Assembly: GCA_023473845.1 (NCBI GenBank)
Contig: JAMCYA010000013.1
Span: 1-35,901 of the forward strand
DNA length: 35,901 nucleotides
DNA from: Patescibacteria group bacterium
GTDB lineage: Bacteria > Patescibacteriota > Doudnabacteria > UBA920
Direction: 5' to 3'
The notes under the pieces are model-generated. The model saw nothing but the letters and a program-made list of their open reading frames with translations. It did no database searches and was not told where the DNA came from. Of this stretch, positions 2,419-27,681 are shown in pieces; the stretch's first letter is position 1, and each line of letters starts with the position of its first letter. The position numbers and the translations under genes are program-made.

Positions 2419-2501
2419 ACCCCTAAACTTTGCGCTTTAACGGATGTTTCCAGGTCAAACACCCAAAGCATGAAGCCTCAAGCCTTAACCGGTATTTTTT
2501 A

Positions 2502-3995
2502 ATGCCAATGAAACCTAAACTTAAGTTATACCTTTCTTTGTTCGCTATTTTGGTGCTATTTGCAGGCGCTGCCTGGATTGCCTACCCCAAGGGCAGTAAA
2601 ATTGACTTAAACAGCCTTAAAATCAAATATAGCCAAGTCTTCAAGACCCGTTTGGGCTTGGACCTGCAGGGCGGGGCCCACCTGGTTTACCAGGCGGATT
2701 TTAAAGATATCAAGCCCCAGGACCGCGCCGATGCCTTAAACGCCATCCGGGACGTAATTGAGCGCCGTGTTAACAGCTTTGGCTTGGCCGAACCCCAAGT
2801 GGCGGTCTCTGGCCAGGATCGGATAATTATTGAACTGCCCGGTATCAAAGATGTAAACGAAGCCATTGACCAGATTGGCAAGACGCCTTATCTGGATTTC
2901 CGGATCCAGGACGGCACGACTCCGCAAGTCCAACCCAACAGCAAGGGTGAGGTCAGCGTGGATGCCATGGCGGGCTGGAAGCCGACCGGGCTTTCCGGCA
3001 AGCAGCTGCAAAAAGCTTCGGTTGATTTTCAGACCAGCGGCGGGCTTTCAAACCAGCCCGTTGTCAGGCTGGAGTTTAATGACGAAGGCAAAAAACTTTT
3101 CGGCCAAATTACCTCGGCCAATATTGGCAAGCCCGTGGCTATTTTTCTGGACAAGCAGCTAATCAGCGCACCCACCGTGCAAACCGCCATTACCGACGGT
3201 GTTGCCGTTATCAGCGGAAATTTCTCAGTGCAGGAAGCCAAGAGCCTTGCCACCAACTTAAACAGCGGCGCTTTGCCCGTGCCTATCCAGCTGGTTTCCC
3301 AGCAGAATGTCGGCGCAACTTTGGGCAAGGAATCTATCCAGAAGTCATTAATTGCTGGAATTTTGGGCATACTCATGATTGCCCTGTTTATGATCAGTTA
3401 TTACCGTTTCCCCGGCTTTTTAGCTGTTTGCGCCCTCATGGTGTACGCCGTAGTCTCGCTGTCAGTGTTTAAAATCGGCATCTCGCCCGTGGCCGTGGTG
3501 CTTGTCGGCCTGTTTTTCTTTTTGGGCCTAACGGTGAATGCATGGTTTGGCTTTTTGGCCTTACTCAGCTACATTATTTTGATGCTTGCAGGCGCGCTTT
3601 CTCCGGTCACTCTGACTTTGGCTGGTATCGCGGGCTTTATCTTGTCCATTGGCATGGCGGTTGACGCCAACATTCTAATATTTGAGCGTTTGAAGGAAGA
3701 GATCCGGGCAGGCAAGGATATTGCCAAGGCCGTAGACGACGGTTTCGACCGTGCCTGGCTTTCCATTCGCGATTCCAACGTGTCCAGCCTGATAACCACG
3801 CTAATCCTCTACATGTTCGGCACTCCGAGCATCAAAGGTTTTGCCGTGACTTTGAGCATCGGCATTCTGATTTCCATGTTTACCGCAATTACCGTGACCC
3901 GGACTTTCTTAAAGCTGTTTGTCGGCAACAACATCCTTACACACCCCTGGCTCTTCGGGGTCAGCAAAATTAAGGCAACAAAAGACAATGTTTAA
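2502..3995 (+). CDS. secD: Protein translocase subunit SecD
   Basis: N-terminal TM helix, a large periplasmic domain (GLDLQGGAHLVY, VSGQDRIIIELPG) and a C-terminal six-TM bundle (GMAVDANILIFERLKEE). ATG 2502 is preferred over the TTG at 2430 given by the ORF track. Confidence 0.9.
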   Translation: MPMKPKLKLYLSLFAILVLFAGAAWIAYPKGSKIDLNSLKIKYSQVFKTRLGLDLQGGAHLVYQADFKDIKPQDRADALNAIRDVIERRVNSFGLAEPQVAVSGQDRIIIELPGIKDVNEAIDQIGKTPYLDFRIQDGTTPQVQPNSKGEVSVDAMAGWKPTGLSGKQLQKASVDFQTSGGLSNQPVVRLEFNDEGKKLFGQITSANIGKPVAIFLDKQLISAPTVQTAITDGVAVISGNFSVQEAKSLATNLNSGALPVPIQLVSQQNVGATLGKESIQKSLIAGILGILMIALFMISYYRFPGFLAVCALMVYAVVSLSVFKIGISPVAVVLVGLFFFLGLTVNAWFGFLALLSYIILMLAGALSPVTLTLAGIAGFILSIGMAVDANILIFERLKEEIRAGKDIAKAVDDGFDRAWLSIRDSNVSSLITTLILYMFGTPSIKGFAVTLSIGILISMFTAITVTRTFLKLFVGNNILTHPWLFGVSKIKATKDNV

Positions 3996-4878
3996 TACCC
4001 TCAAATACTACAAATTTTGGTTTACGGTTTCCGGGCTTATCCTGGCTTTCGGCGTCATCTCGCTTTCCATGTTCGGCCTCCGGCTGGGCATAGATTTCAA
4101 AGGCGGCACCCTGACCGAGCTAAAGTTTGACCAGAAATACGATTTACAGAAAGTCAAGGACGTGCTGGCCACGGAAAATATCGGCAACTATCAGCTGCAG
4201 ACTTCGGAAGAGAACGGTCTGATTATCAAAACCGAAAGCGTGGACAAAGCAATCCACGATAAAATGCTGGCCGATTTAAAGCAGCAGATAGGGGAGTTTA
4301 AGGAAGCCAAGTTCGACTCCATTGGCCCGGTTATTGGCAATGAACTGCGCCGCGATGCAATTTTGCAGCTGGTGATGGTGTCTCTGGGTATTGTGGCTTA
4401 CATTGCCTATGCCTTCCGCCGGGTGCCTAAACCCATTACTTCGTGGCGTTTTGGCTGGTCAGCGGTTGTTGCCCTGCTTCACGACTTGTTGTTCGTACTT
4501 GGCGTTTTCTCCGTCCTCGGCCATTTTAAAGGGGTGGAGATTGACGGGATGTTTGTTACCGCCCTGCTCACCGTTTTAGGCTTTTCCGTGCACGACACGA
4601 TTGTCGTGTTTGACCGGATCCGTGAAAACCTGAAGGTCTACTCCGGCCAGTCCATTGAATACGTGGTAAATAAAAGCATCGGCCAGACAATTGTCAGGTC
4701 CTTAAATACCAGCCTGACGGTGCTGTTTGTCTTGCTGACTCTTTTGCTTTTCGGCGGCGACACCATTAGATATTTTGTCCTTGCCTTGTTTATCGGTATT
4801 TTTGTGGGGACTTATTCTTCCATTTTTATCGCCAGCCCTATCCTGGTTGTGTGGCAAAACTGGAAAGCACAAAAGTAG
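3988..4878 (+). CDS. secF: Protein translocase subunit SecF
   Basis: GIDFKGGT motif, TM bundle and HDTIVVFDRIREN. ATG 3988 overlaps the secD stop (ATGTTTAA), and the upstream part of the track ORF lies inside secD. Confidence 0.9.
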   Translation: MFNTLKYYKFWFTVSGLILAFGVISLSMFGLRLGIDFKGGTLTELKFDQKYDLQKVKDVLATENIGNYQLQTSEENGLIIKTESVDKAIHDKMLADLKQQIGEFKEAKFDSIGPVIGNELRRDAILQLVMVSLGIVAYIAYAFRRVPKPITSWRFGWSAVVALLHDLLFVLGVFSVLGHFKGVEIDGMFVTALLTVLGFSVHDTIVVFDRIRENLKVYSGQSIEYVVNKSIGQTIVRSLNTSLTVLFVLLTLLLFGGDTIRYFVLALFIGIFVGTYSSIFIASPILVVWQNWKAQK

Positions 4879-4915
4879 ATAATTAGGCAATAAAATGCCC
4901 AAAATCACAAACTTT

Positions 4916-4945
4916 GCACCCGCGTAAAAGCGGGTGCTTTTATTT
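4916..4945 (+). terminator. Rho-independent terminator after secF
   Basis: 8-bp stem gcacccgc / gcgggtgc (4916-4923 / 4930-4937), 6-nt loop, then TTTTATTT. Confidence 0.7.
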
Positions 4946-4969
4946 CCAACCAGTATCAAGGGGGTATAT

Positions 4970-4998
4970 TTGACAAACCTTATGCTTTGTGCTATACT
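4970..4998 (+). promoter_or_regulatory. Near-consensus promoter with extended -10
   Basis: TTGACA (4970-4975), 17 nt spacer, TGc-TATACT (4990-4998). The predicted TSS is near 5005, 17 nt before the ATG at 5022. Confidence 0.65.
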
Positions 4999-5021
4999 GA
5001 GGTCGATATTAAAACTCCTCT

Positions 5022-6104
5022 ATGGGAATTCTCGACACAATCATTACAACCAAACAGAACGAGACCATCCAACAGATGCGCCCTGTGGACATCGTAAAAG
5101 AGATTTTGCAGAACCTGAAAGAACGCGACAGGCAGATTTTGGCGCACCGCTACGGGCTGGAAGGCCGGGGAGTCAAAACTTTGGCTGCTATTGGGCAGGA
5201 GCAAAACCTTACCAGGGAGCGCGTCCGGCAGATTGAGAAGGATCTGATGAAGCACCTGAAAAAAACCAGCTCCAAATACTCCAGCTTCAACGCAACCAAA
5301 GAATTTATTCTCAACATCATCTCCGAGCATGGCCGCATTATTGCGGAAGAGAACCTGCTTTTGAACCTGAACATCAAGGATGAGCAAGAAAAAAACGCGG
5401 TGATTTTTTTGCTGAACCTCATTGAAGAACTGGATAATTTCATCCACGATAACTATAAAAAAAACTGGGTTATGGTCCTGTTTAAGGAAGATTTGCTCCA
5501 CGGGTTCGTGGACCAGGGCAAAAAAATCATTGCCGAGAAGCAAAAACCCCTGCAAGCCGAAGAATTCTTGCAGCATTTTAAACAGACTCAATTTTACCAG
5601 GACAATCAAGTGGAGCTGAATGACAAAACCATTATCAACTTTTTGGAACTTGCCGTAGAGATTGAAAAGAACGTGTTCGGTGAATTCGGTCTCAGCCACT
5701 GGAAGGAAATTGTGCCCAAAGACGTCGGCGACAAGGCGTACTTGGTTATGAAATACCACAAGAAGCCGGAACACTATTCGGCCATTACCGAAATGATCAA
5801 CAAGGCCAAATTCGACAGCAAAACCGCCTACAAAGAGACCGTACACAACGAACTGATTAAGGATCAAAGGTTTGTGCTTATCGGCCGCGGCATTTATGCC
5901 CTCGCCGAATGGGGTTTTAAACCCGGGGTTGTGTCGGATGTCATTTCTGAAATCCTCAAAAAATACGGCCAGCCTATGCCGAAAGAAAAAATTATCGAAG
6001 AGGTGATGAAAGTTAGGCAGGTCAAGAAAAATACGATTTTAGTCAGTCTTTCCAATAAAAAATTATTCAAGAAAGTCGGCAAGAACCTTTACGCGCTGGC
6101 CTAG
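5022..6104 (+). CDS. Sigma-70 region 4 domain protein with two C-terminal HARE-HTH-like winged-helix modules (not a complete sigma factor)
   Basis: aa 30-82 read LKERDRQILAHRYGLEGRGVKTLAAIGQEQNLTRERVRQIEKDLMKHLKK, a region 4.2 HTH signature. No region 2 is recognisable. The C-terminal blocks KAYLVMKYHKKPEHYSAITEMI...RFVLIGRGIYALAEWG and VISEILKKYGQPMPKEKIIEEV...LFKKVGKNLYALA resemble HARE-HTH. Confidence 0.7.
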   Translation: MGILDTIITTKQNETIQQMRPVDIVKEILQNLKERDRQILAHRYGLEGRGVKTLAAIGQEQNLTRERVRQIEKDLMKHLKKTSSKYSSFNATKEFILNIISEHGRIIAEENLLLNLNIKDEQEKNAVIFLLNLIEELDNFIHDNYKKNWVMVLFKEDLLHGFVDQGKKIIAEKQKPLQAEEFLQHFKQTQFYQDNQVELNDKTIINFLELAVEIEKNVFGEFGLSHWKEIVPKDVGDKAYLVMKYHKKPEHYSAITEMINKAKFDSKTAYKETVHNELIKDQRFVLIGRGIYALAEWGFKPGVVSDVISEILKKYGQPMPKEKIIEEVMKVRQVKKNTILVSLSNKKLFKKVGKNLYALA

Positions 6105-6129
6105 ACATAAAAACGGAAGATAAAACAAA

Positions 6130-7473
6130 ATGGACATTTTTCAGGGAATTCTGCCCAACCCACTGGATATACTGAAAGCAACGGGAGGTCTTTTGATATT
6201 TTCAGTTATCGGCGCGCTGCTGTATATCCTCTATAAAAGCTACCGCAAAGAAATTGAGCACCAGTTTGTGCACAGCATTGACTGGGTGCTTCTCAATATT
6301 AAAGTGCCCAAGGACAACTTGGCCAGTACTTTGGCCGTGGAGACCATTTTTTCCCAGATGCACGCGCTCCACAGCGGCCTGACTTTTCCGCAAATCTACA
6401 TTGAGGGGCGCATTCAGAAATGGTATTCTCTGGAACTGATCAGCATGGGCGGCAAAATTTCCTTTATTGTGCGCGTACCCAAAGATAGCCGGGGCCTGGT
6501 GGAGTCGGCGTTTTATTCCCATTACCCGGACGTGGAAATAACCGAGGCCGATGATTACATGGAGAACTTCCAGTTTGACCACAATGATGAAAAGAGCCAG
6601 TACGATATTTGGGGTACGGAATTCAAGCTGACTGAAGATTTTGTTTTTCCGATTAAGACCTACCGGGATTTTGAGCATCTGTCCGCGGAGGAAAAAATTA
6701 TCGATCCTTTGGCCAACTTGTTCGAGGCGCTTAATAAAATGCAGCCCTACGAATTTTACGGCATCCAGGTTATCCTTCAGCCTCTGGCCGATGATGAATG
6801 GAAGCCCCACGGCGAAGCTATGGTGAAAGAGCTGATTGGCGAAGAGGCGGAGCATGATGTGAAGCTGAAAGATGTGGCCATGACGCCGTTTAACAAGTTT
6901 GCGCAGTTCAGCCTGAAAAATTTGCTGTTTGGCGGCGGGCACGGCGCCCACGGAGCGCACGGTGCGGAGGATAAGGGCCCGAAAAACAATTGGATGAGCA
7001 TGACGGAAACGCAAAAAGAGCGGGTGAATTTGGTGGAACGAAAAATTGGCAAGCCAGGCTACAAGGCTAAAATCCGGCATTTATATATTGCCCCCAGGGA
7101 CAAGTTTGACCCCACCAAAAAAGGCTTGATTATCGGCGCATACCGGCCGCTCGGCACGGCTAATTCCAACAAGTTCAAACCCGATGTCAGCAATACCTGG
7201 GTCGGGGCGGATTACTACATTTCGCCCACTTTGGAAAAACCCTACTTGGACTACCTGCTCCGGAAGAAAAAACGGCACATTTTTAAAGGTTACAAAAACC
7301 GCGACATCCACATCGGCCTGCCCATGTACGTGCTGAACGTGGAAGAAATTGCCACTATCTACCATTTCCCGATTACCACCAAGGAAACTTCCGTGGCTTC
7401 CAGTATTGAAAAAACCATGAGCAAAAAATCCCAGCCACCGGCTAATTTGCCTATTCTTGAGGAGCTAAGCTAA
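6130..7473 (+). CDS. Membrane-anchored protein of unknown function, upstream partner of the coupling-protein-like ATPase
   Basis: Single N-terminal TM helix (GGLLIFSVIGALLYILY) followed by a roughly 400-aa soluble region with no motif I recognise. It contains an internal GGGHGAHGAHGAED repeat. There is a GGAAG SD-like element 10 nt upstream and a 5-nt gap to the next gene. Confidence 0.6.
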   Translation: MDIFQGILPNPLDILKATGGLLIFSVIGALLYILYKSYRKEIEHQFVHSIDWVLLNIKVPKDNLASTLAVETIFSQMHALHSGLTFPQIYIEGRIQKWYSLELISMGGKISFIVRVPKDSRGLVESAFYSHYPDVEITEADDYMENFQFDHNDEKSQYDIWGTEFKLTEDFVFPIKTYRDFEHLSAEEKIIDPLANLFEALNKMQPYEFYGIQVILQPLADDEWKPHGEAMVKELIGEEAEHDVKLKDVAMTPFNKFAQFSLKNLLFGGGHGAHGAHGAEDKGPKNNWMSMTETQKERVNLVERKIGKPGYKAKIRHLYIAPRDKFDPTKKGLIIGAYRPLGTANSNKFKPDVSNTWVGADYYISPTLEKPYLDYLLRKKKRHIFKGYKNRDIHIGLPMYVLNVEEIATIYHFPITTKETSVASSIEKTMSKKSQPPANLPILEELS

Positions 7474-7478
7474 TTTTC

Positions 7479-9209
7479 ATGGAAACCCCAGACACAATCA
7501 CTTTATTTGCAAAAACCAACTTCCGGAACCGCGAAGTGCCTTTTGGCATTAAGACTGATGACCGTCGGCGCCATATGTACCTGATCGGCAAGACAGGCAT
7601 GGGCAAAACCACGGTTATGGAGAATATGGCCATTCAGGATATCCGCAACGGTCACGGCCTGGCCTTCTTGGATCCGCACGGCGATTCCATCCAGCGGATT
7701 TTGGACTGCGTGCCGCCCAGCCGCGTCAATGACGTGGTGTATTTCAATCCCGCAGACTTAGAAAATCCCATTGCCTTTAACATTCTGGAGTCCGTGGAAA
7801 GCCGCTACAAGCACTTGGTGGCTTCCGGCCTGATGGGGGTTTTTACTAAAATCTGGGCCAATGTCTGGTCAGCCCGCATGGAGTACATCCTCAATAACAC
7901 CGTGCTGGCCCTTCTGGAAAGCCCGGGCAACACGCTGCTGGGCATTACCCGCATGTATGTGGACAAAAAATATCGCAAGCGCATCGTGGACAACATTAAG
8001 GACCCCGTAGTCAGGGCGTTTTGGACCGACGAATACGCCAACTACAACGAAAAGTACCGCACTGAGGCCATTGCGCCGATTCAGAACAAGGTGGGGCAAT
8101 TTTTGTCGTCCGCGATTGTCCGAAACATCGTGGGCCAGCCCAAAAGCACTATTGACCTTCGGGAAATTATGGACAAAAAGAAAATTTTAATTATGGATTT
8201 GTCCAAAGGCCGCGTAGGCGAAAATAATTCCGCCCTGCTCGGTTCCATGCTGGTCACCAAACTGCAGCTCGCCGCCATGTCCCGCACCGACATGCCCGAA
8301 AACGAGCGCTCCGACTTTTACCTGTACGTGGACGAGTTCCAAAACTTTGCCACGGACAGCTTTGCTACCATTTTGAGCGAAGCCCGGAAATACCGCTTAA
8401 ACCTGATTGTCGGCCACCAGTATATCGCCCAGCTGGAAAACGACAAAAGCACCAAGGTGAGGGATGCTATTTTCGGGAACGTGGGTACCATGGTTATCTT
8501 TCGCATAGGCGCAGCTGACGCCGAATTTTTGGAAACGGAGTTTGCCCCCACATTCACCCCGACCGATATGGTAAATCTGCCCAAGTATCACGTTATTTTA
8601 AAACTGATGATCAACGGCGTTGCCAGCGAGCCGTTTTCAGCCGTCACCATCCCCGCCAGCCCCGACTATTTTACGGGCAACTTTGAAAAAGTACTGAAAG
8701 TTTCCAGGGAGCGCTACAGCAACCCCGTGGCCGAAGTGGAAGAAAGGATTACCCGCTGGATGGGCGCGGATTACCACCAGGGGGCGGCGCTGCTAATTGG
8801 CAAAGAGCCCGCAGAAGAGGATGAAGACGAGGAAAAAACAAACGCTGAAGAAGAATTGCCGCCCATGCAAGCGCCGGAGGAGGCCCCCAGCCACACGGTA
8901 AGCGTGCAGGCGCTGCCGGTCCAGTCTAAACCTAAAAGCGCGCCCAGGCAGGAAGTGCAAAAACAGCAAAATCGGCATCCGCAGCAGAGCCAGCAACCCA
9001 GGCCGCCCAAAAGACCTAATCCATTAGCCCATAAAAAACAGGTTAAACCCAAAAAAGAAAACCCTATTTGGGATACGGTTGCCGCCATGCAAAAAGATAG
9101 GCAGGTTTTTTCCGCCCCGGCTCCTGAGGCTCCGCAACCTGACCCGCCTCAGCCTGAACCGGCCCAAGCCAAAACCGTAATTTTGCCCAACCAGCCACAC
9201 AGATTCTAA
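7479..9209 (+). CDS. VirD4/TraD/TrwB-like (type IV coupling protein family) P-loop ATPase with no TM anchor and a disordered C-terminal tail
   Basis: Walker A LIGKTGMGKTT, then FLDPHGD, Walker B FYLYVDEFQNF, and ARKYRLNLIVGHQYIAQL. There is no N-terminal hydrophobic segment. The last ~150 aa are an E/P/Q/K-rich low-complexity region. Confidence 0.75.
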   Translation: METPDTITLFAKTNFRNREVPFGIKTDDRRRHMYLIGKTGMGKTTVMENMAIQDIRNGHGLAFLDPHGDSIQRILDCVPPSRVNDVVYFNPADLENPIAFNILESVESRYKHLVASGLMGVFTKIWANVWSARMEYILNNTVLALLESPGNTLLGITRMYVDKKYRKRIVDNIKDPVVRAFWTDEYANYNEKYRTEAIAPIQNKVGQFLSSAIVRNIVGQPKSTIDLREIMDKKKILIMDLSKGRVGENNSALLGSMLVTKLQLAAMSRTDMPENERSDFYLYVDEFQNFATDSFATILSEARKYRLNLIVGHQYIAQLENDKSTKVRDAIFGNVGTMVIFRIGAADAEFLETEFAPTFTPTDMVNLPKYHVILKLMINGVASEPFSAVTIPASPDYFTGNFEKVLKVSRERYSNPVAEVEERITRWMGADYHQGAALLIGKEPAEEDEDEEKTNAEEELPPMQAPEEAPSHTVSVQALPVQSKPKSAPRQEVQKQQNRHPQQSQQPRPPKRPNPLAHKKQVKPKKENPIWDTVAAMQKDRQVFSAPAPEAPQPDPPQPEPAQAKTVILPNQPHRF

Positions 9210-9211
9210 AC

Positions 9212-9239
9212 AAAAAACCTCCCGAAAGGGAGGTTTTTT
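9212..9239. terminator. Bidirectional rho-independent terminator between the ATPase gene and trxA
   Basis: AAAAAA, then stem cctccc, loop gaaa, stem gggagg, then TTTTTT (stem at 9218-9223 / 9228-9233). Confidence 0.75.
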
Positions 9240-9253
9240 AAATTTGGACAAGC

Positions 9254-9574
9254 TTATACCAGCTTTTTAATAGCTTCTTCGAATTGGGCTTTGGGTGCTG
9301 CGCCGATTATCTCGTTAACTATCTTGCCGTCTTTGAAATATTTCATTGTCGGGATGCTCATTACGCCGTAACGTGAAGCCAGTTCGTTGTTTTCATCCAC
9401 ATTTACCTTGCCTACTTTGATTTTGCCTTCGTATTCCTTGGCCAGTTCTTCGATTACCGGAGCTACTGCCCGGCAAGGCCCGCACCATACTGCCCAAAAA
9501 TCCACGAGTACCGGAATGGGCGAGTTTAAGACTTCTTTTTCAAAATTTCCGCTGTTTAAAGTGATTTCACTCAT
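9254..9574 (-). CDS. trxA: Thioredoxin
   Basis: 106 aa with the WCGPC active site and a canonical thioredoxin layout (VLVDFWAVWCGPCR ... IPTMKYFKDGK). Confidence 0.95.
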   Translation of the reverse strand: MSEITLNSGNFEKEVLNSPIPVLVDFWAVWCGPCRAVAPVIEELAKEYEGKIKVGKVNVDENNELASRYGVMSIPTMKYFKDGKIVNEIIGAAPKAQFEEAIKKLV

Positions 9575-9606
9575 ATTTTGTTGGGATATTTTTTAATCTG
9601 CAATTC

Positions 9607-9635
9607 ATCTTATCCACAATTTTTTCTTTTGTCAA
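9607..9635 (-). promoter_or_regulatory. trxA promoter
   Basis: Read on the minus strand: TTGACA (9635-9630), 17 nt spacer, TAAGAT (9612-9607). Confidence 0.5.
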
Positions 9636-9668
9636 CCATGCTTTATAATGAGAATATACGCATTTTAC

Positions 9669-10646
9669 ATGGAACAGACACAAAAACAAAAACTTTTAAA
9701 AAGGATATTCTGGAGCGCGGTTTTTTTTAATTTTTTAGCCATGACCGGGCTCGGGTTATGGGTTTTTTTGAAACCCGGGCCTGCCGAGCGCGGTTTTGCG
9801 GCTCAGGACCCCGCGCCCCAGGTTTTAGGAGCCATTTCCGCCCCGCTCCGGGGGCCGGAGCAGCCTGTATTGCCCCGCCTGTTTGAGGAAACAGGCCAGC
9901 TGAAATTGGACGGCGTGTCTGCCAAGAGCTTTTTAGTCTACGACGCCGAAACCGGCCAGGATTTGCTGGCCCGCGACCCGGACCAGCGTTTAGGTATCGC
10001 CAGCCTGACCAAGCTGCTTACGGCTTATACGGCTTACCAGCAGTTAAACATGGCAGGGGAGATTATCGTGCCTTCCAGCACGGATTCCAGCATTAGCCCA
10101 AGCCTGAAGCTCCGGCCCGGCGACCGGATTAAAACCCTGGATATTTTCAATGCCATGCTGGTGGGCTCGGAAAACGACGCTGCCGGCGTATTGGCTTCGG
10201 TGGTAAAAACCCAGACCGGGCAAAGCACAGTAAGCCTGATGAACCAAGTAGCCCAAGGCTTGGGCATGAACAGTTCCCATTTTGGCAACCCGTTCGGGTT
10301 TGACTACGGAAATAATTATTCTACGGCCAATGATTTAAAAAAGCTGGTCAACCAGACCCAGGAGCTGCGTGCTTTTACCGCTCTGGAGTCTAAAACCGGG
10401 TATTCGTTTAAGGGCAGTTTTAACGAAACCTACCGGGCGCGGGCCACCAACAAGCTGGTAGGCAGCAGAAAAAACATTTACGCGATTAAGACAGGCTACA
10501 CTGAAACCACTCTGGGCTCCATTGCGCTGAAAACCTACGTTGAAGGGCACCCGGTGGTGGTAATTGTCCTGGGCAGCCAGAACAGGGAGGCAGATGCCTT
10601 AAGACTGATAGATGAAGTAATAAAAAATTTCCGTTTGGCTAAATAG
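9669..10646 (+). CDS. D-alanyl-D-alanine carboxypeptidase (S11, PBP5-type), membrane anchored
   Basis: SxxK (ASLTK), SxN (SEND) and KTG (KTGYT) motifs plus an N-terminal TM helix. The track start at 9648 lies inside a TATAAT box (9644-9649), so ATG 9669 is preferred. Confidence 0.85.
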   Translation: MEQTQKQKLLKRIFWSAVFFNFLAMTGLGLWVFLKPGPAERGFAAQDPAPQVLGAISAPLRGPEQPVLPRLFEETGQLKLDGVSAKSFLVYDAETGQDLLARDPDQRLGIASLTKLLTAYTAYQQLNMAGEIIVPSSTDSSISPSLKLRPGDRIKTLDIFNAMLVGSENDAAGVLASVVKTQTGQSTVSLMNQVAQGLGMNSSHFGNPFGFDYGNNYSTANDLKKLVNQTQELRAFTALESKTGYSFKGSFNETYRARATNKLVGSRKNIYAIKTGYTETTLGSIALKTYVEGHPVVVIVLGSQNREADALRLIDEVIKNFRLAK

Positions 10647-11730: not shown

Positions 11731-13296
11731 ATGTATTCGCTGTTAATCAAAAATTGCCAGCTGGTGGACGGCACCGGCGAGCCGTCCCGCAAGGCCGACG
11801 TGGCCATCCAGGGCGACAAAATTGTCAACATTGACCAAAGCATCAACATTGAGGCGGAAAGCGTTATTGATGCGGGCGGCAAAGTGCTGGCCCCGGGCTT
11901 TGTTGATTTGCAGAACCACAGCGACAGCTACTGGCAGGTTTTTGACAATCCCCGGTTTGACAGCCTAGTTACCCAAGGCTTTACCAGCATTGTCATCGGC
12001 AACTGCGGGGCCAGTTTAGCGCCGCTCTTGTCGCACGACGCGCTTTTGTCCGTGCAGAAATGGCATAACCTGGAAGGCGCAAACATCAACTGGCAGTCGT
12101 TCAGTGAGTACATTGAGGAGCTTTCCCGCCACCGTTTCGCCTGCAACGTGGCCAGCCTGGTGGGGTATTCCACCTTAAGGCGCGGCATTGTCGGCGACCA
12201 GGTGCGGAGCCTGGAGAAAGAAGAGCTGGCGGCCTTAAAAAAATTCTTGTCCGAAAGCATTGATGCCGGCGCTTTCGGCATGTCCAGCGGCCTGTCCTAC
12301 TCGCACGAGATTATTATTTCCGAAATCGAACTCTACGAACTGGCCAAAATCTTGACCCAAAAAAAAGCCTTGTTTTCCATCCATTTGCGCAGCGAAGGTT
12401 CGGAAGTCTCCGAGGCCGTGGAAGAATCCCTGGATATTGCGCGCAGCACGGAAGTCAACTTGAAAATTTCCCATTTCAAAGTCCGCAACGAAAATAACTG
12501 GCAAAAATTCGAGGAAGTCATCCAGAAGATCGAAAATGCCTACCATAAAGGCTATAACGTGCACTTTGACGCATACCCTTACACTGCAATCTGGCAGCCG
12601 CTGTATGCTTATCTGCCGCGCTGGGCGATTGAGGGCGGACGGCAGGTGATGCTCAAGCATTTTGAAAATCCCATCCAGAAAAATAAAATTTTGTCCTACC
12701 TCAACAACCTCAACGTCAAATTCCCTTCCATGCTGGTAGCCTCCACGGCCAATAAGCTGAATTTCATGGGCAAGACCATCGGGCAGATTGCCAAAAATAT
12801 GGAAGTCTCCAGCGAACAGGCGGTTTTGCACATTATTCAGAACGGCGGCAGCGAGGTTCTGGTCTTTGAAGAAAGCCTCAATCCCGACCAGGTTAAACAG
12901 GCAATTTTCCATCCGCTCTCGTTTGTGGCTACGGATGGCGGCGGTTTTCCGGAAACGGTTAAAGACAAGCTGGTGCACCCGCGCTGTTTCGGCAGCGCCC
13001 CGAAATTTTTAAACATGGCCCTGGCTGAAAACGCCATGCCGCTGGAAAAAGCCATTAAGAAACTGACTTCGGGGCCGGCAGCCAAAATTGGCCTCAAAAA
13101 GCGGGGTGAAATTAAGATTGGCAATTTTGCGGATTTGGTTATTTTCGATCCGGCCAAAATTGGCTCCCAGGCCAGCTACCAAAACCCTTACCAATTCAGC
13201 CAGGGAATCGATTACGTATTCGTCAACGGCAAGCCCGCGCTGGCTGAAGGCAAGCTCACCAGCCAGCTGCCCGGCTATGTCTTAAGGAAAAGCTAA
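11731..13296 (+). CDS. Amidohydrolase-superfamily enzyme, N-acyl-D-amino-acid deacylase (D-aminoacylase)-like
   Basis: Start MYSLLIKNCQLVDGTG, then GFVDLQNHSD (QxH in place of HxH), IGNCGAS, SIHLRSEG, ISHFKV and ATDGGG blocks, in the order expected for D-aminoacylases. Confidence 0.7.
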   Translation: MYSLLIKNCQLVDGTGEPSRKADVAIQGDKIVNIDQSINIEAESVIDAGGKVLAPGFVDLQNHSDSYWQVFDNPRFDSLVTQGFTSIVIGNCGASLAPLLSHDALLSVQKWHNLEGANINWQSFSEYIEELSRHRFACNVASLVGYSTLRRGIVGDQVRSLEKEELAALKKFLSESIDAGAFGMSSGLSYSHEIIISEIELYELAKILTQKKALFSIHLRSEGSEVSEAVEESLDIARSTEVNLKISHFKVRNENNWQKFEEVIQKIENAYHKGYNVHFDAYPYTAIWQPLYAYLPRWAIEGGRQVMLKHFENPIQKNKILSYLNNLNVKFPSMLVASTANKLNFMGKTIGQIAKNMEVSSEQAVLHIIQNGGSEVLVFEESLNPDQVKQAIFHPLSFVATDGGGFPETVKDKLVHPRCFGSAPKFLNMALAENAMPLEKAIKKLTSGPAAKIGLKKRGEIKIGNFADLVIFDPAKIGSQASYQNPYQFSQGIDYVFVNGKPALAEGKLTSQLPGYVLRKS

Positions 13297-15773: not shown

Positions 15774-17945
15774 ATGCTCAAACGCAAAAAATTTAAATTT
15801 TACTATCACCAGCAGGCTTTTTTACGCTTGAGCGACGGCCCAAAGCGCAGATACCCTTCGGGTAAAAAGTTCTTATTCTGGCTGGGCCGGGGCTTGTACG
15901 AAGTGGCTTACTGGGTGGGCTATGTCCTGTACGAGTTTTCCCGGCTCATAAAAGTTTTTTCCGTCACGGACTGGCGGCGTACGGGCAAGTCGTTAAAGCA
16001 GCGCTTCCACAAGTTTAGCCAGGCGCGGCCGGCCATGAACTTTACCGTGTTCGTTATTGTACTGCTTTTGCCCCTGGGCCTGATTGAGGGTTTCCGCCTG
16101 GCCGCCAAGGCCGTGGATACCCAAAACAAAGTTTTGCAGTTTACGGCCGCGGGTCTGGAGCAGTTCCAAAAAGCCAAAACCGATTTAGGCGAACAAAACT
16201 TTGCGGCCGCGGGCAACAGTTTTGCCCTGGCCGAGCGCAGCTTTAACACCGGCCGGGACGAACTTACGCAAATGGGCAGCATGCTGGGCGGCCTGGTCAA
16301 TTTGGCGCCGGTCAAACACCAGGCAGATTTGCTGGTGCAAACGGCCCAGCAGGCGGCCAGCGTGGGCTCGGAATTTTCGGCATTCGCCGAACAGATGAAC
16401 CAGCTGCAAATTACGCCAGCGGGTTTTGCCGTCACTGGCAACACTCAGTTTCCGGAGCTTATGGATCGCATGGATGCCTCCGTGGCCAAAATCAGCCGGG
16501 GGATTTTATTGATTGAAAACAACCTCCAAAACATTGACCCGAACAGCCTGCCTGCCGGCTACCGCGAAAGTTATGTGGAAAAAGCCGGCAGTTTTGCCGA
16601 GCTGGCCAAAAATTTCCAGAATCTGAAAAGCCTGTTCGAACTTTTCCGCTTAACCTTTTCCGGCCAGAACCGCATCCTGGTGGTTTTGGAAAACAACAAC
16701 GAGCTCCGGCCCACCGGCGGGTTTGTCGGCAGCTTTGCCAGCCTGAACGTGAAGGACGGCAACATTAGCACGCTGAAAATCGACAGCATTTACGCGCTCG
16801 ACGGCCAGCTGCAGGACAATATTGCGCCGCCTCAGCCCGTGCTCAACGTCAATAACCGCTGGTACATGCGCGACGCCAACTGGTTTGCCGATTTTCCGGA
16901 TTCCGCGCGCAAGCTATCCGCTTTTTACGAAAAGGAAGGCGGGGAAACGCCCGATATCATTATCGCCCTGACGCCTAACCTGATTATCGATTTGCTGCGC
17001 CTGACCGGGCCGGTGGACATGCCCAAGTACAACGTAACCCTCACGCCTGATAATTTTGTGGAATTGACCCAGGTGGTCAGCTCGGAATACGCCACCATGC
17101 CGGAAAATAAACCCAAACAAATTTTGGCCGACCTGGTGCCGGTGCTCTTCGACCGCCTGGCCAAGCTGGCGCCGGACCAAAAGCCGCAGTTTCTGGAAGC
17201 CTTGCAGAAAAATTTGAACGAGAAGCAGATTTTGCTATACTCCCGGAACGAGCCGCTGCAGAATTTGTACCAAAGTTTTAACTGGTCCGGGCACATTCTG
17301 GACACGGATCGCGACTACTTGTCGGTTGTGGGTGCAAATTTGGGCGCCACCAAGAGCGATCTTTACGTGGATCAAAGCATAAAACTGGTTACGGACATCG
17401 CGCTTGATGGCACAATTACCAACCACTTGACCATTACCCGGCACAACAAGCTGCCGCTTTTGGACCAGACTTTCAATAACAGTTTTATCCGCGTGCTCGT
17501 GCCCGCCGGCTCCAAGCTTCTGGAAAACCAGGGTTTCGATTACAAAGTATTGGACATGCAAAAACCTTTGGATCAAAAAACCGATGAAGAGGTTATGGCC
17601 TGGGAAAAGGGCGCGGTGCGCGACCTGGTCAGCGGCACGACCATTGGCACGGAAAGCGGTAAAACGTTCTTCGGCAACTGGCAAAAGCTGGACGGGGGGC
17701 AGACGCGCGACATAAATCTGGTCTACCAGCTGCCGTTTAAGCTAAAAGACATCGACCGCTACAGCCTGCTGCTGCAAAAGCAGCCGGGTGCGCAGAACCA
17801 AAATTTTACCCAGGAAGTGCACTTCGACAACCGCCGTTTGGAATGGTCCAATTTCCAGCCCCAGGACCTGACTGCCGATTCGTATTCCCAAACTTTGGAA
17901 TTAAACCGCGACCAGGTGCTGGGCGCCGTGTTCGTAAGGCGCTAA
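15774..17945 (+). CDS. Large membrane-anchored extracytoplasmic protein, DUF4012-like
   Basis: One TM helix (FTVFVIVLLLPLGLI) near aa 90. The block VVLENNNELRPTGGFVGSFA matches, from memory, the DUF4012 signature. No enzymatic motif is recognised. Confidence 0.6.
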   Translation: MLKRKKFKFYYHQQAFLRLSDGPKRRYPSGKKFLFWLGRGLYEVAYWVGYVLYEFSRLIKVFSVTDWRRTGKSLKQRFHKFSQARPAMNFTVFVIVLLLPLGLIEGFRLAAKAVDTQNKVLQFTAAGLEQFQKAKTDLGEQNFAAAGNSFALAERSFNTGRDELTQMGSMLGGLVNLAPVKHQADLLVQTAQQAASVGSEFSAFAEQMNQLQITPAGFAVTGNTQFPELMDRMDASVAKISRGILLIENNLQNIDPNSLPAGYRESYVEKAGSFAELAKNFQNLKSLFELFRLTFSGQNRILVVLENNNELRPTGGFVGSFASLNVKDGNISTLKIDSIYALDGQLQDNIAPPQPVLNVNNRWYMRDANWFADFPDSARKLSAFYEKEGGETPDIIIALTPNLIIDLLRLTGPVDMPKYNVTLTPDNFVELTQVVSSEYATMPENKPKQILADLVPVLFDRLAKLAPDQKPQFLEALQKNLNEKQILLYSRNEPLQNLYQSFNWSGHILDTDRDYLSVVGANLGATKSDLYVDQSIKLVTDIALDGTITNHLTITRHNKLPLLDQTFNNSFIRVLVPAGSKLLENQGFDYKVLDMQKPLDQKTDEEVMAWEKGAVRDLVSGTTIGTESGKTFFGNWQKLDGGQTRDINLVYQLPFKLKDIDRYSLLLQKQPGAQNQNFTQEVHFDNRRLEWSNFQPQDLTADSYSQTLELNRDQVLGAVFVRR

Positions 17946-24657: not shown

Positions 24658-25015
24658 AGAATATTTTTCCAGGAAAACCGTGCTCTTGCTGCTTTTCGGC
24701 CTGACCGTATTTTTGTTTTATATCCGTTTCCAGCAGTTCCGGGAAAAAAAGAGCATTGACGCGGAAAAGGCCAGCCTGGAAAGCCAGATTGCCGGCGTGG
24801 AAAAGAAAAACCAGGAAATGGAAGCCTCGATTAAATACCTGACTTCGCTCAGTTCCAAAGAAAAAGTTGCGCGCGAACAGCTCAACCTAAAAAAACAAGG
24901 GGAAAAAGTCTACAGCTTTACCCAGGTGGACGGCACGGACAGCAATGCCCCAGGCTATGCCGCAAGCCAGGAGGTAAGCAATCCCGTAAAATGGTGGAGA
25001 TATTTCACGGAATGA
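24650..25015 (+). CDS. Septum formation initiator family protein (FtsB/DivIC-like)
   Basis: N-terminal TM helix, a coiled coil, and the KEKVAREQLNLKKQGEKVY block. It overlaps the upstream gene in an ATGTTTAA junction. Confidence 0.7.
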   Translation: MFKEYFSRKTVLLLLFGLTVFLFYIRFQQFREKKSIDAEKASLESQIAGVEKKNQEMEASIKYLTSLSSKEKVAREQLNLKKQGEKVYSFTQVDGTDSNAPGYAASQEVSNPVKWWRYFTE

Positions 25016-25809
25016 AAAAAGCGTTCAAAATTTTTAGCTGGGCCATCTTAGCCGCGGTTTTAGCTGCGGGCCTGCTTTTAGCCGGCGGGGTTTTGTGGCT
25101 GAAAACCGGACACATTACATTTGCCAAAGCCGCCCTGCTGAAAAAGCTGCCCGCGCCCGTGGCCCTGGTCGGCTCGCGTCCCGTCTGGTCCACCGAATAC
25201 TTTAGCCGGCTGGACAGCTTAAAGCCTTACCAGCCCGCGGGAATGGATGCACAGACTTACGAACAAACGGTTTTTAACCGGTTGGTGCAGGAAAAGGCCA
25301 TGGGCCAGCTGCTGGCGGAAAAAAAGGTGGAAAGCCCCGCGTCCGCTTTCGGCGATAAGGCAGCCCAAGCCCTGGGCGCCTGGCAAGACAAGAAAACTGC
25401 GCTGCAAATTTGGTACAACGGCCAACAAGACTTAAACAGTGTGGCCTTCCAAAAAGCCGCGGACTTGCAGCAAGCCATGCAGAACGGCAAAACCTTTGAA
25501 GACTTGGCGGCGCAGAACAGCCAGGAGCCCCTTTCCAGGGCCTACAGCGGCGATTTGGGCTTTCTGGAGGCCAAGGACTTGCTGCCCGAAATACTCAAAG
25601 CCACGGATGACATGAAAGTCGGCCAGACCAAGCAGGTTGCAACCCGCCAGGGATTGCATATAATAAAACTAGAAGGCAAAGACAACCTGGGCCAAGACAA
25701 CGGCCAGCGCCTGCATTTGAAACAAATTTTTCTGCCCGAGTCCGGTTTTGAAAACTGGCTGGACACGGAGATAAATAAAATCAAAATTATTAAATTCTTA
25801 AGTATTTAG
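25012..25809 (+). CDS. Membrane-anchored parvulin-type peptidyl-prolyl isomerase (PpiC/PrsA-like)
   Basis: Signal anchor followed by the rotamase block SGDLGFLEAKDLLPEILKATDDMKVGQTKQVATRQGLHIIKL. ATGA overlap with the upstream stop at 25012-25015. Confidence 0.75.
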   Translation: MKKAFKIFSWAILAAVLAAGLLLAGGVLWLKTGHITFAKAALLKKLPAPVALVGSRPVWSTEYFSRLDSLKPYQPAGMDAQTYEQTVFNRLVQEKAMGQLLAEKKVESPASAFGDKAAQALGAWQDKKTALQIWYNGQQDLNSVAFQKAADLQQAMQNGKTFEDLAAQNSQEPLSRAYSGDLGFLEAKDLLPEILKATDDMKVGQTKQVATRQGLHIIKLEGKDNLGQDNGQRLHLKQIFLPESGFENWLDTEINKIKIIKFLSI

Positions 25810-25836: not shown

Positions 25837-27681
25837 ATGGAAGAAGAAGTTATAGGCTACATCAAAAGTGCCAGAGGGCACGGCATGAGCGATTCGGAAA
25901 TTAAACAAAACCTGCTCAACGCCGGCTGGGAAGCCGAAGTGGTGGAGGACAGCTTTACGCATGTGCGCGCCCTGGACTCCCAGGAAAACCTGCCTGCGCG
26001 GCCGCCCGAAACCCACATTCCCGGGCACATGGGCCAGCCTATCCGGCCCAGCGAAGTTTTAACCCAAAACACGGCCAGCTTCCCCAACCCAACCACGGGC
26101 ATCAGCGAGACCACCTTTCAGACGGATGCATCAAGCAAGCCTTTTTACAAAAAAGCCTGGGTATGGATTGCGGCCCTGCTGCTGGCGCTGGTTATCGGCG
26201 GCGCCGGCTACTGGTATATGGCCTACGGCTTTAACACCCCGCAGGGAATTTGGAAAAAATTCACCAGCCTGAACCAGAGCAAGGTCTACAAGAACAAATT
26301 CCTGTTTAATTACATTGATACAGGCGAGTTTTCCTCAAAAGACTTGGGCACTTTCAGCCTAAAAGATTTGAAGCTGACTTTTGACGGGCAGTCCTACGTG
26401 GACGTGCGCGACGAAAAGAACCCCCAGTCCAGCGCGGAAATCCAGTACACTTTCGGCAGCGGCAATACCAACTTCAGCACCGGCTTTAAATACCGCATCT
26501 TAAACCGCATTCTCTATTTGAATGTGGGCGAAAACCCGTTTTTAAATAACATCTTTGCCTCCCTGGGCAAGGGCGAAAAAGTGGATTGGCTAAAAATTGA
26601 CCTGAACGCCCTGCAGGACGAGATGAACCAGAGCGGCACCAACACCCAGGCCGAGTTCGACAAAATATTCGACAACCAGCTTAAAAGCGAAATCTCCAAA
26701 ATCTGGGAAGACGCCACCTTTGTTAAAATCCAAAAGTACGCGGGCCGCGAACAGGTCAACGGCGTGAATACCGTGCACTTTATTAATACCTTGGACAAGC
26801 AGGCCATAAAAGACGCGCTTACCAACTCACTTACAAAAATTGCGGACTCGGTAAATGCCAAGGCCACCAGCGATGCGGATAAGCTCCAGGACAAGGACTT
26901 AAGCCTGGCAAAAATCGCCATTAACGGCCTGGTGGACAAGCTGGAGATTACAGACTTTGAAACCTGGGTGGGTGTCAGGGATTTCCGGCTGTACCGCGTA
27001 AAATTTGAAAGCAATGCGCCATCGGTGACTTCGGCCATGAATTTGGTGGTGAACGAAGCCTTGTCCGGAGCCAAGGAAAAATCGCGCGACGCCAAACGTT
27101 TGGCCGACATCCGGCAAATGGCTTCGGCTCTGGAACTCTACTATAACGATATGAATGGCTACCCCGAAGCCAAGAACGGCGTACCGGACGGCGGCATTAC
27201 CCCCATGTATATTGGCCTGGTGCCGGTTTCGCCTCTGCCGGCCGACGGCAGCTGTACGGATTACTACAACACCTATTGGTACCAGCCAAAAGGCGAAAAA
27301 CGTGTTTTGAAAGGCAAGACTGTGTACAGCGACTATGAGCTAACCTTCTGCTTGGGTTCCGATGTCGGCGGCTACAAAGCGGGAATTGCCAAACTCAGCC
27401 CGCAGGGCATTGAAGGCAACATTGCCTGTCCGACCTCGGACGAAAAATGCGTGTCCGCCAACCCAACGCCCGCAGAACCTGTTAAAACCCCGGAGCAGCA
27501 GATCCAGGATTTTGTGGACAAGCTGGACTACTCCGCGCAGATAAAGATCGATGCGAATTATTCCGACTACGAAAAACCGGAAGCAGTCCAGGTGCCGGAC
27601 AACGCGCTGGACCTGATCCAGGCCACCAAAGGCCAAGTGCAGGGCCTGTTTATAAAAGCGCCGGACGCCACGGCCAAATAA
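25837..27681 (+). CDS. Large single-pass membrane protein with a small cytoplasmic N-domain, a long extracytoplasmic region and a C-terminal pilin-like globular domain
   Basis: TM helix AWVWIAALLLALVIGGAGYWYMAY near aa 105. From aa 415 the sequence KSRDAKRLADIRQMASALELYYND...PLPADGSC...ELTFCLG is paralogous to the product of the next gene. Confidence 0.65.
   Translation: MEEEVIGYIKSARGHGMSDSEIKQNLLNAGWEAEVVEDSFTHVRALDSQENLPARPPETHIPGHMGQPIRPSEVLTQNTASFPNPTTGISETTFQTDASSKPFYKKAWVWIAALLLALVIGGAGYWYMAYGFNTPQGIWKKFTSLNQSKVYKNKFLFNYIDTGEFSSKDLGTFSLKDLKLTFDGQSYVDVRDEKNPQSSAEIQYTFGSGNTNFSTGFKYRILNRILYLNVGENPFLNNIFASLGKGEKVDWLKIDLNALQDEMNQSGTNTQAEFDKIFDNQLKSEISKIWEDATFVKIQKYAGREQVNGVNTVHFINTLDKQAIKDALTNSLTKIADSVNAKATSDADKLQDKDLSLAKIAINGLVDKLEITDFETWVGVRDFRLYRVKFESNAPSVTSAMNLVVNEALSGAKEKSRDAKRLADIRQMASALELYYNDMNGYPEAKNGVPDGGITPMYIGLVPVSPLPADGSCTDYYNTYWYQPKGEKRVLKGKTVYSDYELTFCLGSDVGGYKAGIAKLSPQGIEGNIACPTSDEKCVSANPTPAEPVKTPEQQIQDFVDKLDYSAQIKIDANYSDYEKPEAVQVPDNALDLIQATKGQVQGLFIKAPDATAK

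Follow-up and report, generated by a model that had tools for sequence, protein, structure and literature searches.

Introduction

The canonical type IV coupling proteins (T4CPs), such as TrwB of R388, VirD4, TraD and PcfC, have their own N-terminal transmembrane (TM) segments directly before a P-loop motor, and they are encoded together with relaxase or mating-pair genes. Here we describe a three-gene operon from a member of the Patescibacteria in which a motor recognised by the same profiles is organised differently. The operon lies on a metagenome-assembled contig (NCBI assembly GCA_023473845.1, contig JAMCYA010000013.1) whose nearest relatives carry the Doudnabacteria label. The whole stretch of 35,901 nt that was analysed is called the window, and the three open reading frames (ORFs) are called, in their order, P1 (5022-6104, 360 aa), P2 (6130-7473, 447 aa) and P3 (7479-9209, 576 aa), all on the forward strand. 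Unlike the canonical coupling proteins the motor protein P3 has no TM segment; P2 provides one TM helix together with an extra domain of 400 residues, and neither in the window nor in the flanking regions of related loci is a relaxase or mating-pair gene linked to the trio.

The second ATPase to be compared is VirB4 (TrwK of R388), together with its split relative TrsD. VirB4 resembles P2 and P3 taken together in having an N-terminal domain of about 400 residues, a C-terminal RecA-type ATPase and a membrane anchorage. The trio differs from it in that no VirB4 sequence family is matched and in that the P3 motor is closer by sequence to the T4CPs than to VirB4. Single-chain proteins with a T4CP-like ATPase in the C-terminal part are also found in phages: gp156 of Bacillus phage G, a 913-aa protein of Bacillus phage JL and gp27.4 of SPO1, the N-terminal half being DUF8128-like, as P2 is, in the first two. 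These proteins are phage-borne and only 24-27% identical to the P3 motor.

Orphan VirD4-like genes in Patescibacteria are already known; they were reported in 2025 (Quinonero-Coronel et al., PMC12102498), and P3 is one of them. According to that paper, VirB4 is present in 2,417 of 3,035 Patescibacteria genomes (~80%) as part of a chromosomal type IV secretion system (T4SS), and 5,713 VirD4-like T4CP homologues are found in 2,918 genomes. These homologues are chromosomal, roughly two per genome, and mostly far from virB4 (only 148 are near it); the authors suggest a possible exaptation. It also states that T4SS loci in ABY1 commonly contain comF, recG and radA and that TrsD, a separately encoded protein like the N-terminal part of VirB4, is common in the phylum. 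The passages retrieved contain no mention of a DUF8128 domain, a split gene, a sigma-r4/HARE-HTH partner, a secDF adjacency, a promoter or a high conservation, and the words "sigma" and "SecD" do not occur in the text. Nor did we find in the papers searched any mention of the P1 partner, the split or fused architecture, an N-domain with a VirB4-like fold, the adjacency to secDF, the conserved promoter or a conservation above that of SecDF. DUF8128 is a catalogued Pfam family, unstudied; no paper mentioning it was found in the literature searched.

The motor protein P3

P3 is a soluble motor with a P-loop and belongs to the VirD4/TraD/TrwB clade of coupling proteins. It has the Walker A motif GKTGMGKT (residues 37-44), DPHGD (65-69), the Walker B motif YLYVDE (281-286, continued by FQNF) and HQY (from 313, continued by IAQL). 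The maximum 19-residue hydropathy is 1.22, and there is no TM segment. Both the motif blocks and the missing TM segment had been noticed in the initial annotation of this DNA and are found as described there. The protein consists of a core (residues 1-440) and a 136-aa tail (441-576) rich in Pro, Gln, Glu, Ala and Lys.

In Pfam P3 matches TrwB_AAD_bind (E = 8e-15, 55 bits, cut-off 20.5), with residues 25-344 aligned to profile positions 10-311 of 387, TraG-D_C (E = 5e-8, 33.3 bits, cut-off 22) and T4SS-DNA_transf (E = 9e-5, 21.9 bits, cut-off 20.1). These were the families named beforehand for P3, as Sigma70_r4 and HARE-HTH were for P1, and all five are present above their gathering scores. 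The domain-level matches in NCBIfam are SXT_TraD (E = 1e-15), the CD1115 VirD4-like family (E = 2e-13) and also TOL TraD. In a sequence search of the PDB with P3 the only solved structures matched were TrwB, which was best, and DotL. Neither P2 nor P3 matches CagE_TrbE_VirB, AAA_10 or P-loop_TraG at E <= 0.1, and the VirB4_plasma model reached only E = 0.0037 with 15 bits against a cut-off of 590.

Two other identities were considered and rejected. An FtsK/SpoIIIE translocase is at variance with the absence of a TM segment and of any P3 match to FtsK_SpoIIIE or FtsK gamma in Pfam and NCBIfam at E <= 0.1. The HerA-NurA reading could be based on a match to DUF87, the central domain of HerA (E = 4e-8, 34 bits, cut-off 23.2), but this match is generic for the clade, and no NurA or other nuclease gene is near the trio in the window or in related loci. 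A grouping of the ATPase with the housekeeping translocases FtsK and HerA had been named as the outcome that would speak against a coupling protein; the profile matches and the TrwB structure place it with the T4CPs, with none for FtsK_SpoIIIE.

It should be mentioned that the C-terminal tails of P3 orthologues of the split type (see below) are very variable, giving total lengths of 414-931 aa. The cluster P0382 (914 aa) is annotated in one source as "RNA polymerase subunit RPC12/RpoP", and because of this annotation a zinc-ribbon is suggested in its tail.

Split and fused forms of one ATPase

The comparison with single-chain relatives shows that one DUF8128-T4CP ATPase, near-universal in Patescibacteria, is encoded here by two genes, those of P2 and P3. 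P3 matches the phage profile phrog_5156 (824 positions) with E = 2.7e-66 at positions 397-805, and P2 falls on positions 78-287 of the same profile. The members of phrog_5156 include gp156 of phage G (825 aa) and gp27.4 of SPO1 (906 aa), and in each of them the ATPase is found in the C-terminal half. Using hhalign the P2 family was aligned to residues 31-311 of gp156 with a probability of 95% (E = 2.9e-8); the N-terminal half of SPO1 gp27.4 gave no significant match to the P2 family.

A search with gp156 revealed that proteins of 725-995 aa in which DUF8128 is fused to TrwB_AAD_bind/DUF87/TraG-D_C (PF10412/PF01935/PF12696) are widespread, with fused forms in Berkel-, Falkow-, Gottesman- and Saccharibacteria. 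The search with the P3 core gave 6,466 representative clusters at E <= 1e-30. Among the top 150 representatives the ATPase begins at residue ~5 in about 90, which are of the split type, and at residues 230-460 in about 57, which are of the fused type and up to ~60% identical. The fused protein P0386 is the clearest example: its residues 32-420 align with residues 30-442 of P2 (30% identity, E = 1e-54), and its residues 425-845 are ~60% identical to P3. Since the motor of P0386 begins at 425, the boundary between the genes of P2 and P3 is the domain boundary of the single-chain form. Both P0386 and another fused protein, P0395, have the TM segment on the same chain as the motor. A third one, P0411 (941 aa), is found in the context SecD-SecF-(DUF1290)-sigma-r4/HARE-HTH, the same as in the trio loci. 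The earlier proposal that anchor and motor are split over two polypeptides is thus confirmed by the fused orthologues P0386 and P0411, and we consider the identity of P3 and the split between P2 and P3 near certain.

In phage G the gene of gp155, a VirB4-like ATPase, is located directly upstream of gp156 (L080:1220-5362), and in SPO1 (L081:2747-6284) the T4CP-like gp27.4 is paired with gp27.3, a Replic_Relax protein (PF13814). Both are T4SS-like gene pairs in lytic phages.

The DUF8128 protein P2

P2 begins with a short segment before a TM helix at residues 17-35, which is the only hydrophobic segment. The rest consists of a large alpha/beta domain and a conserved C-terminal peptide, KKSQPPxNLP, with a Gly/His loop at residues 268-281. 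It had no match in the local Pfam, NCBIfam and PADLOC libraries. The name DUF8128 comes from precomputed annotation only: PF26449 (PF26449.1) is recorded for 293 homologues of P2, including most of those with 50-90% identity. The family consists of very well conserved proteins of ~440 aa. In the initial annotation P2 was taken as a membrane anchor. The TM helix agrees with this, but the protein is more than an anchor, since a conserved DUF8128 domain of ~400 residues follows, and its model is VirB4/TrwK-like. This domain is probably cytoplasmic, since no second TM segment occurs in the fused forms and the motor depends on cytoplasmic ATP.

The AlphaFold2 model of 6130-7473, made from an alignment of 101 sequences, is confident (pLDDT 88.5, pTM 0.84) apart from a low-confidence C-terminal tail. 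When the PDB was searched with the model using Foldseek, the top 13 matches were all TrwK/VirB4 of R388, with probabilities of 0.97-1.0 and E = 7e-5 to 2.5e-3, at low TM-scores of only 0.30-0.36. Among viral models Foldseek matched gp156 of phage G (E = 7e-17), the 913-aa protein of phage JL, a protein of phage Slash and gp155 of phage G (E = 2e-6). The model suggests a resemblance to the N-terminal domain of VirB4 in particular, because P2 has no P-loop and the VirB4-type P-loop domain of gp155 begins only at about residue 330.

The P2 profile had no match among PDB sequences at E <= 10, and hhalign of P2 was negative against gp155 of phage G, the VirB4-like and 431-aa proteins of locus L085 and a 708-aa T4CP-like protein of Bradyrhizobium. 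Because all these profile comparisons were negative, it is the Foldseek comparison that carries the likeness to VirB4. The link to phages is visible only via profile and structure, since tblastn of P2 against the phage records and a scan of IMG/VR viral contigs with the P2 alignment both gave nothing.

In the C-terminal peptide positions K432, Q435, P437, L440 and P441 are invariant, and in the fused forms the peptide is the linker. It is plausible that it serves in the split forms as a docking element onto P3.

A separate observation concerns the Gly/His-rich loop GGGHGAHGAHGAED (window 6931-6972, P2 residues 268-281). It is disordered in the model, with pLDDT < 50 at residues 270-281. Most members of the family nevertheless retain its GGGHG..HG core, with an almost invariant H277, and the loop may bind a metal or a partner.

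The sigma-r4/HARE-HTH protein P1

P1 combines two kinds of domain known from the transcription apparatus. It has sigma-70 region 4 at residues ~21-85, a helical middle part (~87-218), a HARE-HTH domain (~235-297) and a second winged helix (~304-359). The Pfam matches are Sigma70_r4 (29-81, E = 1.5e-10) and HARE-HTH (238-297, E = 2.9e-10). NCBIfam gave the C-terminal regions of RpoS and RpoD, with only the C-terminal ~70 model residues covered and scores far below the cut-offs. The AlphaFold2 model of P1 has pLDDT 74.5 and pTM 0.39, and its best Foldseek matches are region 4 of SigA and RpoS (36-40% identity, rmsd 1-2 Å). The helix NLTRERVRQIEKDL, which is at least 90% conserved, matches the -35-recognition helix of primary sigma factors such as E. 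coli sigma-70; this recognition helix (TRERVRQIE) is conserved. Sigma region 2 was not found in Pfam or NCBIfam, where only Sigma70_r4 matched, and lacking it P1 is not a sigma factor.

The HARE-HTH domain is closest to the N-domain family of the RNA polymerase (RNAP) delta subunit RpoE, and P1 is labelled "RNA polymerase delta subunit" in some sources. We rejected this identity; the match to TIGR04567 (36.5 bits) is below the delta cut-off of 42, and the C-terminus is a second winged helix and no acidic tail. What sets P1 apart from both delta and sigma is that its 360 aa join the two domain types and also contain a helical linker and a further winged helix. The protein had been described as a dedicated DNA-binding protein. 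Its Sigma70_r4 and HARE-HTH domains are in agreement with DNA binding, whereas the intact region 4 helix and the delta-like HARE-HTH make the dedication uncertain: P1 may be an RNAP- or promoter-binding factor rather than a plain DNA adaptor.

Conservation of the operon

Relatives were collected by a scan using one genome per species. At least 555 genomes have a relative of P2, and 79 loci were retrieved from Doudna-, Kuenen-, Uhr-, Magasanik-, Kerfeld-, Komeili- and Nomurabacteria, Parcubacteria and Paceibacter. The counts given below are for 78 related loci of ~13 kb each, the near-identical L001 being left out.

P3 follows P2 on the 3' side in 67 of the 78 loci, P1 precedes P2 on the 5' side in 58, and the whole trio is present in 57. 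The trio, for which a survey of synteny in related genomes had been proposed, is therefore a conserved neighbourhood across many classes of Patescibacteria. The gene for SecF is directly upstream of (P1)-P2 in 62 of the 78, including loci with neither P1 nor P3. P2 and P3 are kept without P1 in 10 loci, and P1 occurs without P3 at the trio position in one locus only, at a contig end. In another 10 loci (L045, L067, L042, L054, L059, L061, L065, L070, L071 and L076) P2 is found alone behind SecA-SecD-SecF, and both P1 and P3 are missing from its surroundings. The median gaps in the related loci are 49 nt between P1 and P2 and 14 nt between P2 and P3.

The core of P3 is the most conserved of the proteins compared. 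Its median identity is 78%, followed by SecD (68%), SecF (65%), P1 (54%) and P2 (45%); in the most distant genomes the values are 62% for the P3 core, 47% for SecD, 45% for SecF, 37% for P1 and 33% for P2. A motor which is more conserved than SecD and SecF rules out a decaying conjugative remnant, the possibility that the initial annotation had held against its own proposal. P1-P2-P3 is thus a vertically inherited core operon and no remnant of a mobile element.

In two loci a second stand-alone T4CP-like paralogue, ~43% identical to P3 and without DUF8128, is located 3' of P3 (L073:5563-6999 and L048:9661-11256).

Transcription signals and surrounding genes

The predicted sigma-70-type promoter which drives P1-P2-P3 is located at 4970-4998 on the forward strand and reads TTGACA-17-(TG)-TATACT, with an extended -10. 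It scores 11/12 and is the top site within 4000-10500. Upstream of it, 3' of secF, is an intrinsic terminator (4916-4945, forward strand) made of the hairpin GCACCCGC-GTAAAA-GCGGGTGC, which has an 8-bp GC-rich stem, and a T-run. The folding energy is -18.2 kcal/mol (z = -4.6), and none of 200 shuffled sequences was as stable. This terminator sets the trio apart from the upstream secDF unit.

The gaps between the genes are 25 nt (P1-P2) and 5 nt (P2-P3), with P2 and P3 in different frames, and folding found no significant RNA structure at these two internal junctions. A symmetric bidirectional intrinsic terminator, A6-CCTCCC-GAAA-GGGAGG-T6, closes the operon at 9212-9239. It lies between P3 (forward strand) and a convergent thioredoxin gene (reverse strand) and is common to both; the energies on the two strands are -18.1 and -18.0 kcal/mol (z = -5.8 and -5.2). 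The consensus scanner missed it, and it was revealed by direct folding. ORF calls, motif scan and folding thus agree with the operon as it was first drawn, that is with its ORFs, its gaps, the promoter, the two terminators and the lack of an internal hairpin.

The promoter and the upstream terminator are more than chance finds, because the arrangement recurs in the secF-P1 spacers of related loci. A promoter scoring at least 9/12 is present in 42 of 44 such spacers, mostly as TTGACA-17-TG-TATACT, and a hairpin with a T-run in 29 of 44. With these signals conserved, the insulation of the operon is conserved as well, which makes secDF its neighbour and no co-transcribed partner.

The genes secD-secF (2430-4878, forward strand) match the Pfam SecDF families and form a separate transcription unit, the conserved upstream neighbour of the trio. 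They are counted as genomic context rather than as an established functional part. The longest ORF of secF has a TTG start at 3919 and overlaps the end of secD by 77 nt (3919-3995), and the true start is probably downstream. The SecD of the window (521 aa, 2430-3995) has no rotamase insert, and a PpiC-type protein is encoded separately at 24991-25809. In Magasanikiibacteriota and Nomurabacteria a SecD of ~685 aa has a Rotamase_3 (PpiC-type) domain inserted (L045:2503-4563, L067:2297-4345).

The base composition of the window is uniform, with a GC content of 49.2% in the trio and 50.6% in the window. Each of the other sizeable ORFs in the window is either a housekeeping gene or without a match to any family. 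The housekeeping set includes M1 peptidase, YkuD (L,D-transpeptidase), SecD, SecF, thioredoxin, DD-carboxypeptidase, MraY, Mur ligase, FtsW, MurJ, LepA, DivIC, PpiC, glutamate racemase and ATP synthase. Family assignment of the sizeable ORFs detected no VirB4, VirB6, relaxase, pilus or ComEC gene in the window, as had been stated for it, and no integrase or other defence gene. Two unusual insertions occur in the division and cell-wall cluster: a 521-aa amidohydrolase-family protein (11731-13296) between mraY and the Mur ligase gene, and a 723-aa DUF4012 protein (15774-17945) between ftsW and murJ. A 614-aa ORF (25837-27681) between the PpiC-type and glutamate racemase genes has no Pfam family at E <= 0.001.

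Paralogues and distant relatives

The P3 family, with 42-72% identity to P3, includes one member adjacent to T4SS genes. The paralogue P0215 (728 aa, no TM segment, 48% identical to P3) is located near dnaN and is divergent from PrgI- and VirB4-like genes. In locus L087 a second DUF8128-T4CP paralogue (834 aa) adjoins a T4SS_pilin-like gene, which is a weak match, on the strand opposite to that of the fused P0411. The latter is followed in the same locus (L087:10986-18826) by seven small ORFs, mostly single-pass membrane or soluble proteins with no clear pilins among them. Other paralogues adjoin dnaX or gyrBA, each with a small non-HTH ORF upstream. In the fused paralogues of Falkowbacteria and Saccharibacteria no HTH or other family was found in these upstream ORFs, so the combination of an HTH protein with the motor is not general.

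Outside the Patescibacteria the relatives of the P3 core (H26-H50) are found in Sulfitobacter (38% identity), Priestia (37%), Streptomyces/Embleya (32%) and haloarchaea (~26%). Of 334 plasmid relatives 264 are on plasmids typed as non-mobilizable. The plasmid contexts of the Sulfitobacter and Bradyrhizobium relatives were uninformative, with transposases and CHAT/TPR genes; the Bradyrhizobium gene is flanked by CHAT and TPR.

Models for the function of the trio

The model which we prefer is a membrane-docked DUF8128-T4CP motor which handles DNA or nucleoprotein together with P1 and works with a channel encoded elsewhere. We give this overall picture a probability of about 50%. By analogy with TrwB and VirB4, P2 and P3 would assemble into a membrane-docked ring motor, with the C-terminal peptide of P2 docking onto P3. 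P1 would be a specificity or regulatory partner inherited together with the motor; it might bring a DNA or nucleoprotein substrate, possibly associated with RNAP, to the motor, or it might control the expression of the motor. The channel would most probably be encoded elsewhere, since a conduit made of six single TM helices, one per subunit, is improbable. Homology points first to the chromosomal Gram-positive-type T4SS of the phylum, and that the motor works with this T4SS is a tentative proposal, which we hold a little less firmly than the overall picture. The initial annotation had called the ATPase an orphan and the module distinct from classical conjugation machinery. This is not established, because a T4SS is present elsewhere in ~80% of the genomes (PMC12102498), and a paralogue with 48% identity is located beside PrgI- and VirB4-like genes.

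Several observations weigh against the preferred model. The window contains no T4SS gene, and neither do the loci (~13 kb each) of the 78 related genomes; the most constant neighbour is secDF and no DNA-handling gene. Of two paralogues in a genome it is a different one that adjoins T4SS-like genes, so the lineage linked to secDF and P1 may do something other than T4SS coupling. The likeness of P2 to TrwK/VirB4 has low TM-scores and no support from sequence profiles, and P1 may be a general transcription factor merely sharing the promoter. The survey in PMC12102498 also reports T4CP homologues in more genomes (2,918) than VirB4 (2,417) and, in Southlakia, a non-essential T4CP homologue and an essential T4SS. 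The essential T4SS cluster was described as having no recognizable coupling protein (Wang et al., 2023).

The alternative which survives best and is closest to the initial annotation, although we think it unlikely, is a housekeeping machine independent of any T4SS, a phylum-specific motor acting alone or with another channel such as ComEC or Sec/SecDF in the handling of DNA, nucleoprotein or protein. It might serve in the uptake of DNA, in the handling of the chromosome at division, or in tethering transcription complexes to the membrane or recycling them via P1. This would agree with the housekeeping nature of all neighbours and the adjacency to secDF in 62 of 78 loci, with the P3 core being more conserved than SecD or SecF, with the strong conserved promoter ahead of the operon and with the RNAP-type domains of P1. 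It would also agree with a separate paralogue being the one that adjoins T4SS-like genes and with the mostly non-mobilizable plasmids on which relatives from outside the phylum are found. It has to be weighed, though, that one TM helix per subunit offers no obvious conduit, that the P3 family of 42-72% identity includes a T4SS-adjacent member, and that secDF forms a transcription unit of its own, cut off by a terminator, so that the adjacency may be inherited gene order. No ATPase of the T4CP clade is known to act without a T4SS. The published survey is in favour of T4SS independence, with T4CP homologues in more genomes than VirB4, 148 of 5,713 near virB4 and exaptation kept open by its authors (PMC12102498); FtsK, on the other hand, is present in at least some Patescibacteria, being mentioned in TM7x transcriptome papers.

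A more specific version, which we consider quite unlikely, postulates a core machine specific to Patescibacteria and independent of the T4SS. In it a T4CP-type motor with a VirB4-like N-domain, possibly a surviving VirB4-VirD4 intermediate, would be guided by P1 to promoter-like DNA or RNAP and perform at the membrane a nucleoprotein transaction that is essential. The import of DNA, the handling of the chromosome and the recycling of transcription complexes are examples of what this might be; in other bacteria unrelated proteins would do this work.

It is improbable to a similar degree that P1 is a general RNAP-associated factor, delta-like and containing region 4, which shares nothing but the promoter with P2 and P3; this proposal is not exclusive of the others. 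A region 4 that is 36-40% identical to SigA/RpoS with a conserved recognition helix, a HARE-HTH closest to RNAP delta and the delta-subunit annotation in some sources are what such a factor would show, and the 10 loci with P2-P3 and no P1 and the different small non-HTH genes upstream of other fused paralogues are consistent with it. The distribution of P1 speaks for a closer link: it is at the trio position in 58 of 78 loci and found without P3 only at one contig end, it is also gone in the 10 loci without P3, and the link is kept where P2 and P3 are fused (P0411).

A decayed remnant of a conjugative element, or an anti-phage defence system with a MADS mad8-like ATPase and an MzaA-like sigma protein, is highly improbable. 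PADLOC gave domain-level matches to mad8 (E = 1.9e-13, P3) and MzaA (E = 9e-8, P1), and homologues occur in phages and on plasmids. These PADLOC matches cover generic sigma-r4 and P-loop domains only, there are no partner genes or full-length matches for MADS or Mza, and integrase, relaxase and other defence genes are absent. No relative was found on IMG/VR viral contigs. The P2 family is present in at least 555 species-level genomes, the trio has a fixed place between secDF and cell-wall genes and a native composition, and the motor is more conserved than SecD/SecF; conservation and synteny effectively refute this explanation. An assembly or frameshift artefact of one fused gene, which the 5-nt gap, the different frames and the existence of fused orthologues might suggest, is refuted for practical purposes by 68 independent loci from different studies in which P2 and P3 are separate ORFs 1-322 nt apart, by the ~90 of 150 top representatives starting with the ATPase at residue ~5 and by the same arrangement in a 98%-identical genome.

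Implications for the Patescibacteria

The trio is likely to be important for the biology of Patescibacteria, because their tiny genomes keep it across many classes, and keep it tighter than SecDF. Almost every Patescibacteria genome has VirD4-like genes, and the sole essential T4SS studied is without a recognised coupling protein. These genes now gain a defined architecture, DUF8128 plus motor in split or fused form, and a candidate partner, the sigma-r4/HARE-HTH protein. A vague annotation is thereby turned into hypotheses which can be tested, on what the proteins bind, which DNA they target and what phenotype their depletion gives. Should the N-domain prove to be VirB4-like, this would also bear on how the two ATPases of the conjugation machines diverged.

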